The notes: generated from the sequence alone by a model not told the origin. Positions 11,857 to 58,676 are shown, numbered from the stretch's first letter. The stretch is 64,000 nucleotides of DNA from an uncultured Candidatus Saccharibacteria bacterium (GCA_964630375.1 CAZVRT010000001.1:71379-135378); one strand, 5' to 3'. Translations and numbers: made by a program.

Positions 11857-12423
11857 TTATCTGGCAACTGGGATGACCGAAATTCGTCCAGACCCAATTT
11901 GAAAGACATTTTCGATGTGTCTCCCACGCTGAGGATGAGCGAAGTTCAAAGTCATGATCCCTGGGTTTTTGTAGCAATGAACAGTCCATGCCACACTTAA
12001 GTACCATCCCAACATGGTGTCTTTCCATTCCAAACACTCTGCCGGTTTCTTGGAGAAAACACACTCAACCACCGCTCGACGCTCCTTCTGATGAAGAGTG
12101 TCTTTCATGTGATGAGAAAAGCGACAGAAGGTAAAACCTTCTTGCACCAGTCTTCTTCCCACACCCGAAGGAGTAACTCGAGAGCAGTTCTTGACGAATT
12201 GATCCCCCCGAGCCATTTCATGTTGAAGAGCGCGTTTGTCGGCCTCTCTCCAATCCAGAGGAACGAAGGGACAGCCTGACGGCACGGCCCCAGGTTCATC
12301 ATGGACGAAAAACTTGAAATGTACCTCTTTGGTACCATTGAAATCGGCTTCCCGACTCCAGGTTTCGTCAGCTGCTTTTGTTCGGGAAGCAACCACCCCG
12401 TTTTTTTGCCATTTTTTACCCAT
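11857..12423 (-). CDS. GC-rich hypothetical protein (foreign-composition insertion)
   Basis: The 188-aa ORF lies in a 650-bp block of about 52% GC, against about 35% in flanking DNA. The third codon positions are GC-skewed and the protein is His/Cys-rich (HDEPG, CPF, CRFSHH, HCY). No family was recognised. Confidence 0.4.
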   Translation of the reverse strand: MGKKWQKNGVVASRTKAADETWSREADFNGTKEVHFKFFVHDEPGAVPSGCPFVPLDWREADKRALQHEMARGDQFVKNCSRVTPSGVGRRLVQEGFTFCRFSHHMKDTLHQKERRAVVECVFSKKPAECLEWKDTMLGWYLSVAWTVHCYKNPGIMTLNFAHPQRGRHIENVFQIGSGRISVIPVAR

Positions 12424-16721: not shown

Positions 16722-17501
16722 CTATAAATCAATTTCCAGAGAAACAGGGCAGTGATCGCTACCAAAAACTTCGTTGTGAATTTCGGTGCGACGAATTTTT
16801 GAAGCGATATTTTCAGAAACAAAAATATAATCTATACGCCAGCCTACATTCCTATCGCGAGCACGCGTCTTCATATCCCACCAAGAATACTTCTCAATCT
16901 TCGGATGCTGACTTCTCCATGAATCCACAAAACCACTCTCAACAACTTTAGAAACCCATTCTCGTTCAACAGGCAAAAAACCAATCGTGTTTTCATTTTC
17001 TTTCGCTCTTAAAATATCCAACTCCGTATGTGCCACATTTACATCACCGGCAAAAATTACGTTGTAACCTTTTTTCCGCAGCTTCAAAACATATTCCAAA
17101 AACTCATCAAAAAATTTCAACTTAAATTTAAATTTGTCGCCACCCATTCCGCCGTTGGGGAAGTAACAATTTATCAAAACAAAATCTTCATAAAAAAGAG
17201 AAATCATACGCCCTTCTGCATCCAACTCTTCAATTCCAAAACCATACTCAACTTTTTCTGGTTCGTGTTTTGTATAAATAGCAACTCCGCTATAACCTTT
17301 TCGCAACTTTGAATGATCAAAATAAACAAAATAATCTTCTACTTCCATAAGAGATTCTGGAAGTTGTTCAGGATGACATTTTGTCTCTTGCAAGCAAAAA
17401 AAATCAGGATTTTGCTTTAAAAACCAAGAAAAAGTTTTTTGTTCAGAGTCTTTTTTATACCACGCCCGAATTCCATTTACATTCCAAGAAATAATTTTCA
17501 T
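16722..17501 (-). CDS. xth: Exodeoxyribonuclease III (AP endonuclease)
   Basis: The motifs IISWNVNGIRA...FFCLQETK...SDHCPV are the EEP-family ExoIII signature. Confidence 0.9.
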   Translation of the reverse strand: MKIISWNVNGIRAWYKKDSEQKTFSWFLKQNPDFFCLQETKCHPEQLPESLMEVEDYFVYFDHSKLRKGYSGVAIYTKHEPEKVEYGFGIEELDAEGRMISLFYEDFVLINCYFPNGGMGGDKFKFKLKFFDEFLEYVLKLRKKGYNVIFAGDVNVAHTELDILRAKENENTIGFLPVEREWVSKVVESGFVDSWRSQHPKIEKYSWWDMKTRARDRNVGWRIDYIFVSENIASKIRRTEIHNEVFGSDHCPVSLEIDL

Positions 17502-17521
17502 ATTGCAAAAACAACTATAAC

Positions 17522-17752
17522 ATGGCTAGAATGATATGGAATCTCAACCCTGTTCTTGCCATGAGCACTTGTTTAGAAAAAACCCCAAAAGAAAGAAGAG
17601 TCGACTGGGATAACCTGATAAAAGTAGTAGAAGGTAACCTGGACTGCTCGAAAGAAGAAGCCGAAATAGCAATTGACAACTGGCTTGAAGCCGGTGACAT
17701 CGTTTGCGAACCACAACCTGGCGGTAAATTTATTTACCGCGTCAACATCTGA
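17522..17752 (+). CDS. Small hypothetical protein, possibly winged-helix
   Basis: The 76-aa ORF is about 44% GC and is followed by the hairpin ACATCTTCCTCTGGAAGATGT plus a T-run. It is the first gene of the GC-elevated island. Confidence 0.35.
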   Translation: MARMIWNLNPVLAMSTCLEKTPKERRVDWDNLIKVVEGNLDCSKEEAEIAIDNWLEAGDIVCEPQPGGKFIYRVNI

Positions 17753-17926
17753 AAGCTTTTCAACACATCTCACATCTTCCTCTGGAAGATGTTTTTATTT
17801 AAGAACACCAAATACTTGCCATATTATATTAACAATGGTTAAATTGACCTCGAATTGCTCGTTTGAATTAGAGATCATGATGAGTAATTCTATTCGTAAC
17901 AACAAAAGATAGAAAGATAAAGTCAG

Positions 17927-18325
17927 ATGCAAAAACTTGGAGATGAGATGTCGCCGGACCAAATCCGTGCCGCGCAAAACAAGCTCGGTCTCGAGACCCC
18001 TGCCGACCTCAACGGTCGACATGTCAAGGCCGTCTGCAAACGCGGAGGTGGATCATTCCACGGCAAGATCACCCTCAAAGAGGGGAGGTATTACCTCAAG
18101 TCGATGAAACTCTCTCTGCTTAGGGAGAAGATGGAGAAAGAGCTGCAAGAGGCTGGGTTTGTCCCCAAACCTCGGTACGAAGGCACGGCTTGGTCCACCC
18201 CAACCTCGGCCTCGGCCAGCAGCACGGAGGCCGTCAAAGCGGAAGTCGTCAAGAAAGAGAAGCCCAAGGCTTCTCGTCGCAATTGGCGACACAAGTTCGA
18301 TATCCAAGGTTTGGCTTCGGCCTGA
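17927..18325 (+). CDS. GC-rich hypothetical basic protein (cassette A)
   Basis: The 132-aa ORF has about 55% GC with strong GC3 bias. It is preceded by a conserved ~60-bp leader (TTCTATTCGTAACAACAAAAG...) and followed by the terminator GGGCCCGGAGCTTCGCTCTGGGCCC plus a T-run. Confidence 0.45.
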   Translation: MQKLGDEMSPDQIRAAQNKLGLETPADLNGRHVKAVCKRGGGSFHGKITLKEGRYYLKSMKLSLLREKMEKELQEAGFVPKPRYEGTAWSTPTSASASSTEAVKAEVVKKEKPKASRRNWRHKFDIQGLASA

Positions 18326-18504
18326 CACTGGCGATCACGATTTCACAAACAGACAAATGGGCCCGGAGCTTCGCTCTGGGCCCTAATTTTTTCTTTAAAC
18401 TTGAAAAAACATAATTTTGTGTTATAATGCCGTGGAACAGTTCATTTCATTAGAGAGTTATGAGCCGTTCTATTCGTAACAACAAAAATAGAAAATAACG
18501 AAAA

Positions 18505-18828
18505 ATGGCAGGAAAACTTGCGCAAAGGATCAGGTCAAAAGCTCCGAACCGGCTCATGCTGAATGCATCGGAACTTCGACTCCTCCAGAATGCAGGACTC
18601 TTCAAAGGTCGCGAAGGATTCGTCGACCGAGAAGTCAAAGGGAAAATCATTCGACACTTCGGCGTTTTGCGCCGAATCGAAGAATCAAGGATGATCACCA
18701 ATCCTCGGGGAGAGAGGGTGATTGACACCCAAATCCACACGGTCTTCGACGTCCAACGCGAGGAAGACACCGGCTTCATCGCCGAACCTCGCTCCAAACG
18801 CACCAAAAACCACGTTTGGAGCGCGTAA
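18505..18828 (+). CDS. GC-rich hypothetical basic protein (cassette B)
   Basis: The 107-aa ORF carries the same leader motif at 18472-18493 and its own terminator AAGCCCGG...CCGGGCTTT plus a T-run. The antisense ORFs here are GC artefacts. Confidence 0.45.
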   Translation: MAGKLAQRIRSKAPNRLMLNASELRLLQNAGLFKGREGFVDREVKGKIIRHFGVLRRIEESRMITNPRGERVIDTQIHTVFDVQREEDTGFIAEPRSKRTKNHVWSA

Positions 18829-18897
18829 CGAAAACAACACAAACACAAACAGGCCAAAGCCCGGTAGCATTCGCTCCGGGCTTTATTTCTTTTTATT

Positions 18898-19830
18898 TTA
18901 TTTTTTCTTTCGATTTTTTCCGTGAAAGTTTTTGTGAATTTCTCGCAAATGTCTGTCGGTAACGTGAGTATAAACTTGTGTTGTTGTAATATTCGCATGC
19001 CCCAACAAAGCTTGCACTGAACGCAAATCAGCACCATTTGAAAGCAAGTCCGTTGCGAAACTATGCCGAATAACATGTGGAGTAACTTTTCGAGAAATTC
19101 CAGACTTTATCGCATAACCTTGCACAATTCTCTCAATTGAACGAGCCGAAATCCTAATAGATTTTTTCTTTGCCAAAACATCTTTTCCACTTTTGTTCGC
19201 AACTTGCACAAACAAAGCATCATCCATATCGTCTCTTTTATCTAAATAGTTTTTCACAGCATCTCTCGCTTCATCTGAAATAAAAACCACTCGCACTTTG
19301 TCTCCTTTTCCACGAATAGAAAATTCGTCTTTTGTTAAATCCAATTCTCGAGGCAAAGAAACCAATTCTGAAACACGTAATCCTGTTGAAAATAAAAGCT
19401 CTAACATTGCTTTATCTCTCAGACCTTTTAAATCTTTTGTATCTGGCGCATTTAAAAGACGAGTCAATTCTTCATTAGACATCAAATCCAATTCTCGAGC
19501 TTCTGTTTTTGCCAACTCAATTTTTTCTGAAGCCAAAGCTGTCACGCCTCGCTTCGCCAAATATTTTAAAAAAGAACGCAAAGCAATTAAATAATAATTC
19601 TGAGTTCTTCTCTTCATTGTATCTTTCACTCCCGGCTGTCTGTTGAGCCACAAACGAAACTCTCTAATATTGTTTTCAGTTATATCTTTTGGGTTTTTTA
19701 TTCCAGCATGTTCAAAAAAACGAGTTAAATACCGATCATAATTCTCAACAGTTTTTACACTTCTACCTTTTTCAATTTCCACATACTCCAGAAATTCTTG
19801 TTTGATATTTAAAATAGGGGAATTTGCCAT
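18898..19830 (-). CDS. xerC: Tyrosine site-specific recombinase of the XerC/XerD family
   Basis: It has the N-terminal core-binding domain, the catalytic R...HxxR...Y motifs (VTPHVIRHSFATDLL, LGHANITTTQVYTHV), and a K-rich tail. Confidence 0.8.
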   Translation of the reverse strand: MANSPILNIKQEFLEYVEIEKGRSVKTVENYDRYLTRFFEHAGIKNPKDITENNIREFRLWLNRQPGVKDTMKRRTQNYYLIALRSFLKYLAKRGVTALASEKIELAKTEARELDLMSNEELTRLLNAPDTKDLKGLRDKAMLELLFSTGLRVSELVSLPRELDLTKDEFSIRGKGDKVRVVFISDEARDAVKNYLDKRDDMDDALFVQVANKSGKDVLAKKKSIRISARSIERIVQGYAIKSGISRKVTPHVIRHSFATDLLSNGADLRSVQALLGHANITTTQVYTHVTDRHLREIHKNFHGKNRKKK

Positions 19831-51881: not shown

Positions 51882-52289
51882 TCAAATTTGCGCCCGAAGG
51901 AAATGCAAGAAATCGATCTTGAGAGGATCGAAAAACTCAGCATGCCTTTTCTGGGGATGTTCACAGAGAAAGAATCCGTCACTGGAAGTGCTCCGAAACC
52001 AGAGGTCTGAAGTCGGAATTTTTTCGTTCTCAGAAACCAACTTGAGTTCCAAGGCGATTCTTACCAGCTCTTGGCGAAGCTTCTTCTTCGCCGCAAAAAT
52101 CCGCTTTCTGTGAAGAACCGTCAGAGGAGAACCCGAGAGTTGGGCAGGATGCAGATCAACATTCAGGATTTCACGGTCGGTGACACACAGAAGTGATATC
52201 ACGTTTCCGAGAGCACAGGGATCGTTGGACAACAGCTCAAATGCACGCCGAACGATTTCCTCGTCACGAGTTGCGGTTTGTTTCATCAT
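51882..52289 (-). CDS. GC-rich hypothetical protein inserted between yebC and ruvC
   Basis: The 135-aa ORF sits in a 480-bp block of about 48% GC and has its own terminator. No family was recognised. Confidence 0.4.
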   Translation of the reverse strand: MMKQTATRDEEIVRRAFELLSNDPCALGNVISLLCVTDREILNVDLHPAQLSGSPLTVLHRKRIFAAKKKLRQELVRIALELKLVSENEKIPTSDLWFRSTSSDGFFLCEHPQKRHAEFFDPLKIDFLHFLRAQI

Positions 52290-57610: not shown

Positions 57611-57770
57611 TGCAGTAATTTTAGCACACAAATTGATGTGCAAAATTTTTTTTATTTGATTTGTTTAGGAGGAAAATTCGGGAAGTGTTTTAAAGTGCTG
57701 CCAAAGTATTGAGGGGATACGGATAGGTGCAGATTGACATTTTGTGTTTTTATTGTTATTATTCCAGACA

Positions 57771-58676
57771 ATGAAATCGTTCTTTTTCAACAACAGGACG
57801 GCGTTTCTCGCCGTGTTCACCCTTATGTTCAACCTGTTTTCGGTCTCGCTTGTCGAGGCTGGAACTCAACCCGTCAAAGAGAAGAAGGGTTTGGCGAAGA
57901 TTTTCGCCAAGAAAGCCCCGACTATCGATTCTGTTGCGAGGCAGGCACCTGTGCAAGCTTCGGCTTCCAGGCCGAGCTGTGTTCCGCCGAAATGTCAGCC
58001 GACACAAGTTGTCAGGCAACCACGGATTATCTACGAATACGAAGATGTTGTGGAGGTCATCAAACGACCCAAAATCATCTACGAGGACGAGATACACGTT
58101 GTCAAGCGCCCCGTAATTGAGGAGGTGGAGGAAGTGTTTAAAGTGCCAGTATACATTCCCGAAATTGAAACTAGGAAAGTAGTAATTCCGGTGTATGTCG
58201 TAGAGACAAAGACCGTTCCGGTTTCGGTACAGGTTTCACAACCTGTTGTGTATGCTCCGGCGCCTCAGGTGATTCATTGCCCTCCGCCTATTGTATATGC
58301 ACCTGCACCACAGATGGTACACTGCCCTCCGCCTGTGCAAAGGTGTCCTCCTGTTCAGCAGGTGAGATATTCTGCTCCGGCGCCGAGGACTGTTTATCGT
58401 CAACCTTGTCCTCCTCCGCGTCAGTATGTGAGGCATCAACAACAGTATCGTCAGCCTTGTCCGCCTCCGGAAGGGTATCGACAACCACCGCGTAGACACT
58501 ACGCAGGTGGTGGGCATCCAGGTTACGGTGGGGGATTCAACTTCAATCCTGTGAATATAAATCAGGGTAACAACATCATGTATCGCTCTGGTGGCAACCA
58601 CAACCCTAATGCTGGGTTGGGGCAAGCCGCTGTCCGCCATGCGCTTGCGCAAGGTGGTATGTTCATGGGAAGGTGA
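57771..58676 (+). CDS. GC-rich secreted Pro/Val/Gln-rich repetitive protein
   Basis: It has a signal peptide (MKSFFFNNRTAFLAVFTLMFNLFSVSLVEA) and repeats such as VYAPAPQ(V/M)(I/V)HCPPP, with a Gly/Asn-rich tail. It is about 50% GC with high GC3, and is followed by a terminator (58690-58730). Confidence 0.5.
   Translation: MKSFFFNNRTAFLAVFTLMFNLFSVSLVEAGTQPVKEKKGLAKIFAKKAPTIDSVARQAPVQASASRPSCVPPKCQPTQVVRQPRIIYEYEDVVEVIKRPKIIYEDEIHVVKRPVIEEVEEVFKVPVYIPEIETRKVVIPVYVVETKTVPVSVQVSQPVVYAPAPQVIHCPPPIVYAPAPQMVHCPPPVQRCPPVQQVRYSAPAPRTVYRQPCPPPRQYVRHQQQYRQPCPPPEGYRQPPRRHYAGGGHPGYGGGFNFNPVNINQGNNIMYRSGGNHNPNAGLGQAAVRHALAQGGMFMGR

Follow-up and report, generated by a model that had tools for sequence, protein, structure and literature searches.

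The stretch of DNA analyzed here (64 kb from an uncultured Candidatus Saccharibacteria bacterium, hereafter the window) contains, between xth and a xerC-type recombinase gene, a short interval in which a small gene, orfA, is followed by two GC-rich mini-genes whose open reading frames (ORFs), ORF1 and ORF2, encode basic proteins of 132 and 107 aa. On balance, and with confidence slightly better than even, we interpret this locus as an ancestral, lineage-specific variable slot between xth and xerC in Paceibacteria-type genomes of the Candidate Phyla Radiation (CPR). Each mini-gene forms a unit composed of a sigma-70 promoter, a leader of ~80 nt, an ORF for a small basic protein with high GC content at third codon positions (GC3), a CA tract and an intrinsic terminator, and our best guess is that the slot holds a set of small basic proteins that are translationally gated and shuffled by recombination. 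The first-pass annotation of the window had read the same interval as a cassette system or small integrated element acquired from a GC-richer donor.

The xth-xerC slot in the window and in related genomes

Relatives of the locus were reached through homologues of the flanking xth and of ORF1, yielding 11 contigs with 9 distinct arrangements, and the xth homologues (65-85% identical) came from CPR bacteria, the named ones being Taylorbacteria, Campbellbacteria, Nomurabacteria and Paceibacterota. The gene order cca, xth, orfA, mini-genes, xerC, rpsO was found in L039, L040/41, L042/43, L044, L045, L046-48, L049, L050 and L051/52. In these relatives cca, a ~125-aa gene and xth lie on one strand, an interval of 0.6-1.7 kb lies on the other, and the convergent xerC is followed by rpsO and an NYN-domain gene. 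The interval holds the same units as in the window (promoter, leader, GC-enriched small ORF, CA tract and terminator), often with an orfA homologue ahead of them, the slot content amounting to orfA plus one to three autonomous mini-genes. Because the slot was present in all relatives examined (syntenic in 11 contigs, with xth 70-85% identical), the region at 17.5-18.9 kb is not an insertion, and the small integrated element of the first-pass annotation is better described as an ancestral slot.

The GC history of the locus points the same way. Family ORFs from these genomes (33-41% GC overall) had GC3 values of 0.37-0.66, and almost all fell between 0.5 and 0.66, compared with 0.26-0.30 for the flanking genes; raised GC3 is thus an old and maintained property rather than the trace of a recent transfer. 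Since both the synteny and the GC3 enrichment run through the relatives, the locus is not a recent import. Furthermore, an exhaustive HMMER search of 1.84 billion representatives gave no homologue outside the clade that could stand for the proposed GC-richer donor: it returned only ~13 small relatives of ORF1. Seven of these were looked up, and all six that yielded DNA context lay in the xth-xerC slot of related AT-rich CPR genomes, some at 38-41% identity. Matches of ORF1 to giant Ig/cadherin proteins in this search were discarded as spurious repeat matches. The locus therefore differs from a genomic island in that the slot and its families recur in relatives, the atypical GC3 is family-wide and homologues outside the clade were absent. 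The features of the slot are listed below, with coordinates counted from the first nucleotide of the window.

16722-17501, minus strand: xth (exodeoxyribonuclease III), conserved left boundary of the slot (Pfam Exo_endo_phos, E 3e-30)
17503-17532, plus strand: predicted orfA promoter, TTGCAA-18-TAGAAT, with TTGCAAAAnAAACTATAACATGGCTAGAAT kept in relatives (promoter scan; near-identical in L039, L042, L045, L046, L049 and L050)
17561-17752, plus strand: orfA, 63 aa, acidic, minimal winged helix (the 76-aa reading of the first-pass annotation starts at 17522)
17772-17800, plus strand: orfA intrinsic terminator, a 9-bp stem (hairpin 17772-17792) followed by a T run (-11.2 kcal/mol, z -4.3)
17816-17845, plus strand: predicted unit 1 promoter, TTGCCA, 17-nt spacer, TGgTTAAAT (promoter scan)
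17845-17926, plus strand: unit 1 leader (covariance model R1, 64 bits, E 7e-10, match 17845-17929)
17927-18325, plus strand: ORF1, 132-aa basic protein of the family with motif GRHV..C.RGG..FHGK
18344-18393, plus strand: unit 1 3' untranslated region (UTR) with CA-rich tract CACAAACAGACAAA, terminator hairpin 18359-18383 and T run (-23.8 kcal/mol, z -5.8; homologous 3' UTRs in relatives)
18401-18428, plus strand: predicted unit 2 promoter, TTGAAA-16-TATAAT with extended TG (11 of 12 consensus positions)
18428-18504, plus strand: unit 2 leader (model R1, 58 bits, E 1e-8, match 18428-18507)
18505-18828, plus strand: ORF2, 107-aa basic protein ending in HVWSA (orthologues in L042/L043, L044 and L049)
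18836-18895, plus strand: unit 2 3' UTR with CA-rich tract ACACAAACACAAACAGGCC, terminator hairpin 18856-18884 and T run (-19.9 kcal/mol, z -5.0)
18898-19830, minus strand: Xer-type tyrosine recombinase forming the conserved right edge of the slot, in convergent orientation to the array (Pfam Phage_integrase, E 2.5e-43)

The window has a GC content of 0.357 (35.7%), and the 46 ORFs of at least 150 aa within it have a mean GC3 of 0.27 and a maximum of 0.51. ORF1 and ORF2 lie in two patches of 52-58% GC, and their description in the first-pass annotation as GC-rich, small and basic with a GC3 bias was borne out. ORF1 has a GC content of 0.561 (56%; 0.57, 0.45 and 0.66 at the first, second and third codon positions) and a pI of 9.9, and ORF2 has a GC content of 0.528 (53%; 0.58, 0.41 and 0.59) and a pI of 11.1. 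The biggest excess of the three positions is that of GC3 (0.59-0.66 vs. 0.27), and the codon positions are coding-like in composition, the first being purine-rich and T-poor.

Each unit carries its own sigma-70-like promoter, and the sequence (C)TTGCn...TGGTTAAA(A)T precedes every unit 1 leader in the relatives. The -10 region of unit 1 (17836-17845, GGTTAAAT) also fits the integron core consensus GTTRRRY; most relatives read GTTAAAA at this position, no partner core is present, and the fit is treated as a coincidence. A GC hairpin terminator follows each ORF, as had been noted earlier, the three hairpins (-11.2, -23.8 and -19.9 kcal/mol; z -4.3 to -5.8) being perfect GC stems with T runs. The 3' UTRs of units 1 and 2 are homologous as well, sharing CACAAACAG...GCCCGG...TTCGCTC.GGGC. 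The third small ORF reported upstream of the pair, with a terminator of its own, is also present, with its start revised: the most likely start is at 17561 (63 aa), because the upstream ATGGCTAGAAT is a conserved -10 region that is out of frame in relatives. Its product is a minimal winged helix, with the helix, helix-turn-helix (HTH) and beta-hairpin wing of that fold. The gene is variable among relatives and is absent from L040 and L044.

Toxin-antitoxin pairs (PhdYeFM/ParE, HigB-like/DUF6290 and PemK) lie near the cca-xth block in L042 (11502-12013), L050 (1463-2786) and L040 (1-259), at varying positions, and none is present in the window. The cca-xth neighbourhood appears to tolerate small accessory genes.

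Coding constraint and exchange of the mini-gene bodies

ORF1 and ORF2 are real coding genes under protein-level constraint. In all orthologue pairs the proportion of nonsynonymous differences (pN, 0.31-0.47) was lower than that of synonymous differences (pS, 0.65-0.85), with frames, start codons and stop codons kept despite saturated synonymous sites; for the ORF2 orthologues the respective values were 0.39-0.46 and 0.67-0.78. The core motif of the ORF1 family reads GRHV..C.RGG..FHGK.H...G.YYLE.K...VR..M.KEGF..KPK..G..W, and both its GRHV..C.RGG..FHGK portion and the HVWSA* ending of the ORF2 family survive at 30-50% identity. The AlphaFold model of ORF1 (AF2, family alignment) has a predicted local distance difference test score (pLDDT) of >90 at residues 10-76, arranged alpha-alpha-beta-beta-beta-alpha, and a disordered basic tail. 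That neither protein belongs to a recognisable family, as stated in the first-pass annotation, agreed with our searches, in which ORF1 and ORF2 had no match in Pfam, NCBIfam, PHROG or PADLOC; in particular, none of the anti-phage defence and counter-defence models of PADLOC and PHROG was matched by orfA, ORF1 or ORF2. A search of 5.8 billion clustered proteins with ORF1 returned only ORF1 itself, and ORF2 is missing from that collection because gene callers miss it. On the one public contig with the locus, the gene caller picked a 61-aa antisense ORF in place of ORF2, and in L044 (1203-2256, minus strand) no gene was called in a 1-kb interval holding two clear units. Gene callers skip such GC-rich ORFs, and the family is therefore under-counted in protein databases.

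The ORF bodies also share an excess of mRNA structure. Compared with dinucleotide shuffles, the mRNAs of ORF1 and ORF2 folded with z scores of -3.2 and -3.8, respectively, and the median z was -2.1 for 24 slot ORFs vs. +0.1 for 17 size-matched pieces of native genes (Mann-Whitney p = 2e-4). Since synonymous sites are saturated, no particular fold of the ORF bodies is conserved; the maintained property is their stability, or GC content itself.

The first-pass suggestion of a conserved leader driving unrelated ORFs in a cassette-like manner was upheld, with at least four ORF families lacking detectable homology found on one platform and with ORF bodies swapped in a strain pair. ORF1 and ORF2 had been considered as paralogues on the basis of a 40-nt stretch of 70% identity (BLASTP E 0.02), a possibility rejected by hhalign, which gave a probability of 1.2% for the two families, and by two profile tests, as neither the C-terminal nor the full-length ORF1 profile recovered an ORF2-type protein. 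Among 1,671 locally compiled six-frame ORFs, the full ORF1 profile recovered the divergent L044_u1 (E 1e-5) and did not recover L042_u1, L040_u1 or the ORF2-types. In the relatives, the unrelated ORFs L042_u1 and L040_u1 stand behind a homologous leader and before a homologous terminator, and the UTRs are much better conserved than the ORFs both across species and across non-homologous ORFs.

The clearest comparison is that between L042 and L049, which are 90-100% identical in xth, promoters, leaders, terminators, units 2 and 3 and xerC and only 35-45% identical in the bodies of orfA and unit 1. The upstream breakpoint is at GATAGAAA, ~10 nt ahead of the ATG, and the downstream one coincides with the stop codon; ORF bodies have thus been exchanged between near-identical strains. 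Within a genome, leader identity was 0.62 (window) and 0.79 (L044), as opposed to 0.42-0.56 between unit 2 and its orthologues, which points to flanks that have evolved in concert in two of the three genomes compared. A scan of the 64-kb window with the leader model revealed no silent donor copies. Exchange may come about through homologous recombination, or through gene conversion, within the conserved flanks and shared UTRs, and recombination in the flanks could at the same time homogenise the leaders within a genome; GC-biased repair of mismatched ORF bodies and/or selection for stable mRNA may keep GC3 high. Capsule and O-antigen loci and pilE/pilS conversion resemble the slot in the sharp fall of identity at the edges of a variable segment between conserved flanks and in signs of concerted flank evolution. 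They differ from it in that the unit of exchange here is a single ORF of 0.3-0.4 kb flanked by its own 5' and 3' UTRs, and in that silent donors are missing from the window.

The shared leader and its translation signals

A near-identical leader of ~60 bp had been described before both ORFs, and the shared stretch proved to be longer, at ~80 nt (17845-17929 and 18428-18507). It includes the 20-mer TTCTATTCGTAACAACAAAA, which occurs in exactly two copies, at 17888 and 18468, two or more matches being found in 0 of 100 shuffles. When 15 leaders from 10 related genomes were aligned and folded with RNAalifold, a single 10-bp hairpin, P1, was obtained. Its cells were paired in 89% of cases vs. 33-50% in slid registers, its covariation score was 0.405 vs. 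at most 0.14, and 0 of 500 shuffles reached the observed values (a control that favors P1 for the reason given below). P1 was present in the minimum free energy (MFE) fold of 14 of the 15 leaders, and in several of them it was extended so that its U-rich 5' arm pairs with GGAGG. In unit 1, P1 joins 17854-17863 to 17879-17888 around the purine-rich loop TTAGAGAT, and in unit 2 it joins 18437-18446 to 18459-18468 around the loop TTAGAGAG. The 3' arm holds a NUG codon that begins a short upstream reading frame, MMSNSIRNNKR* in unit 1 (17877-17912) and MSRSIRNNKNRK* in unit 2 (18460-18498). The first-pass annotation mentioned neither this frame nor the hairpin.

The leaders also contain a TAGAAAG-type element. 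In unit 1 a GTTCT-like TTCTAT at 17888 is followed by TAGAAAG at 17910-17916, the match ending 10 nt before the ATG, and in unit 2 TAGAAA is located at 18489-18494. All 15 leaders have such a match of 6-7 nt ending 6-12 nt before the true ATG; of 40 native genes, 36 had no match to the same 16-mer longer than 5 nt. Many bacterial 16S rRNAs end in an extreme 3' tail, CUUUCUA, that is complementary to TAGAAAG, and the spacing of the element would fit an offset Shine-Dalgarno (SD) sequence. Two other readings of TAGAAA were rejected: every copy lacks the final T that all native -10 boxes in the window have, which speaks against the -10 box of a second, ATG-proximal promoter, and just 5 of the 15 leaders carry the element in frame, which speaks against a conserved stop of the upstream frame. 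A second helix between GUUCU and UAGAA was likewise rejected as too short and too invariant for covariation. The 5' UTR of orfA (17533-17560 in the window; also L042, L046 and L049) has a conserved AACCCyGTTCTT directly before the ATG, and the GTTCT pentamer is common to this UTR and to the sequence 3' of P1 in the unit leaders; it could be a shared protein- or RNA-binding site.

The rest of the window presents a different picture, in that a 4-mer SD core was found in only 1 of 40 native genes and in most of them a TATAAT-like box stands 6-9 nt ahead of the ATG (e.g., upstream of 4195, 10570, 32458, 36073, 41554 and 30092), for which reasons the organism looks largely leaderless. We propose that in the slot P1 would bury a strong SD-like GGAGG together with the adjacent NUG codon and so gate translation, that the invariant UAGAAAG, 6-12 nt before the true AUG, would act as an offset SD by pairing to the very end of the 3' tail of 16S rRNA, and that the upstream GUUCU could mask UAGAAAG. 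The slot genes would then be under separate, conditional initiation in an organism whose genes are mostly leaderless and SD-less. This translational gate is a reasoned proposal that draws on the covarying hairpin, on a fit to an rRNA tail whose sequence is assumed, and on the difference between these leaders and the other genes of the genome. In addition, orfA may encode a DNA-binding protein that regulates the slot. SD-sequestering 5'-UTR hairpins such as fourU and ROSE offer a parallel, as the U-rich 5' arm (CAUUUCU) pairs with GGAGG and a start-like codon in several species; unlike in those systems, the buried SD here lies 43-54 nt upstream of the real start, there is no match in Rfam (thermometer families included) and the organism makes no other use of SD sites.

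Searches for the leader beyond the slot gave largely negative results. The covariance model R1 found no further copy in 139 kb, and a scan of the window with Rfam 15 at gathering thresholds returned tRNAs only and no cis-regulatory family; in a permissive scan of 17400-18950 the best match was L20_leader (23.7 bits vs. a threshold of 58.7, E 0.06), positioned over a terminator and not over the leader. For the exact 18-19-mer of the leader, 185,579 species-representative genomes gave 3 matches, metagenome contigs 34 and viral contigs none; every match lay within unrelated sequence, and the extended leader motif was absent from every exact-word match in these collections. Such exact-word scans are uninformative across species because the motif is too diverged between them. 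The first-pass annotation had held that its reading would fall if the leader were not found elsewhere and relatives carried the genes at native GC. The first part stood for the exact word, which occurs nowhere else in the leader context; the remainder did not, as a diverged leader was present in every relative examined and the genes there were GC-enriched.

GC-rich islands also occur elsewhere in the window. At 11857-12423 (minus strand, GC 0.49) a 188-aa orphan protein is encoded behind a ~65-nt leader with GCTGTTCTTCAATTCAAC, and its mRNA has a z of -3.4; its syntenic homologue in L039 is 47% identical vs. 86% for the adjacent MYG1-family gene, and the corresponding position in L042 is occupied by an unrelated 375-aa gene, a pattern that matches that of the xth-xerC slot. 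The island at 57744-58676 (plus strand) encodes a proline-rich protein of 310 aa that has a hydrophobic segment at its N-terminus and is probably secreted, and that at 51882-52289 (minus strand) holds a 135-aa orphan ORF.

Alternative explanations and biological implications

Several observations weigh against the explanation that we favor. The case for recombination comes from a single clean strain pair, L042 and L049, of which the former is represented by two independent assemblies and the latter by a single short contig. Double-sided changes in P1 were found in only 3 of 10 pairs, and the leaders come from 10 related genomes, by reason of which the shuffle control overstates the significance of the hairpin. 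In the window's own two leader copies, moreover, the loop reads AGAGA(T/G) and not GGAGG. The SD model takes a 16S 3' tail of ...CCUCCUUUCUA as assumed, the window and the loci containing no rRNA; the pairing of GUUCU with UAGAA is short, nearly invariant and present in few MFE folds; and the ~80-nt leader is as a transcript a prediction. None of orfA, ORF1 and ORF2 matched Pfam, NCBIfam, PHROGs or PADLOC, nor did the ORF1 core match a fold in the PDB, and the high GC3 has two candidate causes, GC-biased gene conversion in a recombination hotspot and selection for stable mRNA.

The least probable alternative, to which we give very little credence, is that the locus is a small element or integron-like cassette array recently imported from a GC-richer donor and moved by the adjacent tyrosine recombinase. 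Like integron arrays, it comprises small, mostly orphan and unrelated ORFs, each with a hairpin, whose bodies differ between strains, a tyrosine recombinase abuts it on the 3' side as the first-pass annotation had indicated, and the GC3 of the ORFs is far above that of the genome. The recombinase, however, scored 255, 254 and 230 bits against the XerD, XerC and XerA models of NCBIfam, all end to end, the last above its cut-off of 220 and the first two below their equivalog cut-offs, as against only 130.8 bits for the integron integrase (TIGR02249; cut-off 265), and because the latter match is split in two stretches, the IntI-specific insert is absent. The protein has a Phage_integrase domain and an N-terminal SAM-like domain (Pfam), carries the motifs RVSE, HVIRH, GHANI and QVYTH, and in each of the relatives examined its gene lies beside rpsO and the gene for the NYN-domain protein, a position independent of mobile DNA. 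It is thus by all appearances a housekeeping XerC/XerD-type enzyme and a conserved neighbour of the slot. It is, furthermore, convergent with the array and located at its 3' end rather than divergent from an attI, and each unit has a promoter and leader of its own, in contrast to promoterless cassettes served by a common Pc. The hairpins are terminators without paired RYYYAAC/GTTRRRY (R'/R'') cores beside them, since core matches were single and at chance level (17838 +/17844 -, 18751 +/18757 -; shuffle mean 2.8) and none flanked a hairpin; no attC-like sites were found. The breakpoints of the swap leave the hairpin out, whereas an attC would travel with its cassette. Finally, slot, recombinase and flanks are syntenic and ancestral, no homologue was found outside the clade, and viral contigs contained no match to the exact leader word. 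Scarcely more probable is the view that what the GC-rich bodies specify is structured non-coding RNA, with the ORFs being open by chance. Both bodies do fold better than shuffles, an effect that is family-wide; in GC-rich DNA several frames stay open over long stretches, among them here an antisense ORF of 208 aa; and gene callers pass over ORF2 and the entire L044 interval. The retention of frames, starts and stops at saturated synonymous sites, the persistence of protein motifs, the confident ORF1 core, the coding-like codon-position composition and the lack of an Rfam match nevertheless stand against it; a dual coding and RNA role for the ORF bodies is possible.

Two further alternatives retain a small share of the probability. 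The somewhat stronger of them, though still unlikely, holds that the translated leader peptide (MMSNSIRNNKR in unit 1, MSRSIRNNKNRK in unit 2) is the functional unit, acting by stalling or by termination-reinitiation as in erm, cat and tna, with the hairpin secondary. In all 15 leaders the SD-like element is followed by a NUG codon, which may be ATG, GTG or TTG but is never CTG, several of the peptides begin MS(S/V)(S/L)F, the conserved TAG of TAGAAA serves in 5 of the 15 as the stop of the frame or as one half of a double stop, and coupling is attractive in that the main ATG has no canonical SD. Leader-peptide genes such as ermC, catA86 and tnaC are similar in having a short frame with an SD-like element ~10-20 nt upstream of a gene without canonical SD. 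In the slot, on the other hand, GGAGG and NUG are only 0-3 nt apart, the peptide is conserved in neither sequence, length nor frame, and no resistance or catabolic gene lies downstream. The frame ranges in length from 1 to ~35 codons; in some leaders it runs into the main ORF, and in L053 the two are fused in frame. Sister strains differ, with 9 vs. 5 codons in unit 1 and ~35 vs. 5 in unit 2, which is not the behavior of an attenuator or arrest peptide. The two window copies share 20 identical nt with no synonymous change and yet shift frame before the stop, and the NUG lies within the covarying 3' arm of P1. We consider the RNA hairpin a better candidate than a conserved leader peptide, but both may operate together, since P1 could gate the upstream frame. 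A little less probable again is that these are ordinary fast-evolving orphans, the leader and terminator being left from a tandem duplication and the GC content following from amino-acid composition. The tandem units do share both UTRs, the abundance of Arg, Gly, Ala and Pro in the proteins raises GC1 and GC2 too, and the window has other GC-rich orphan genes. The UTRs outlast the ORFs, however, which is the reverse of neutral decay after duplication, and the GC3 excess is the biggest of the three; the sharp breakpoints of the strain mosaic, the covarying hairpin and the excess mRNA structure likewise count against it.

The variable slot that we favor is akin to known kinds of system, namely variable cassette loci and SD-sequestering leaders, and no family or publication describing it was found; a literature search returned nothing on the locus, on SD or leaderless usage in the group or on such cassettes. 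Among possible roles, fast divergence combined with allele replacement makes the small basic proteins candidates for a conflict or interaction role, e.g., with phage or a host cell. Hotspots of acr-aca and counter-defence genes share with the slot small, fast-evolving, unrelated orphans at a fixed position with common signals and a small (winged-)HTH protein that could autoregulate. The slot differs from them in having no phage or mobile context and no PHROG or PADLOC match, a variable orfA, and separate transcription units in place of an operon. It is conceivable, though we would give it only about one chance in a handful, that the locus is a dedicated plug-in expression site, in which promoter, leader and terminator serve both as a translational gate and as homology handles for swapping unrelated small effector genes. 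This would be an integron-like cassette economy without integrase or attC, with high GC3 and mRNA structure as a by-product of GC-biased conversion or as a requirement for stable mRNA.

CPR bacteria (Patescibacteria) account for a large share of bacterial diversity, have tiny genomes and live mostly attached to other cells, and their gene regulation is almost unstudied. The locus contributes a candidate structured leader RNA, confined to a single genomic slot and unmatched in Rfam, three families of small proteins (those of ORF1, ORF2 and orfA) without a sequence-family match in the libraries searched, a clean natural example of ORF-level replacement between conserved UTRs, and contrasting translation signals within one genome, with SD-like leaders at the locus and leaderless genes elsewhere. 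Even if gating and swapping prove wrong, it illustrates that genes of unusual GC content in an AT-rich genome are not necessarily the product of horizontal transfer. If both are true, the slot would offer a handle on how streamlined symbionts keep small, rapidly changeable interaction or conflict proteins.

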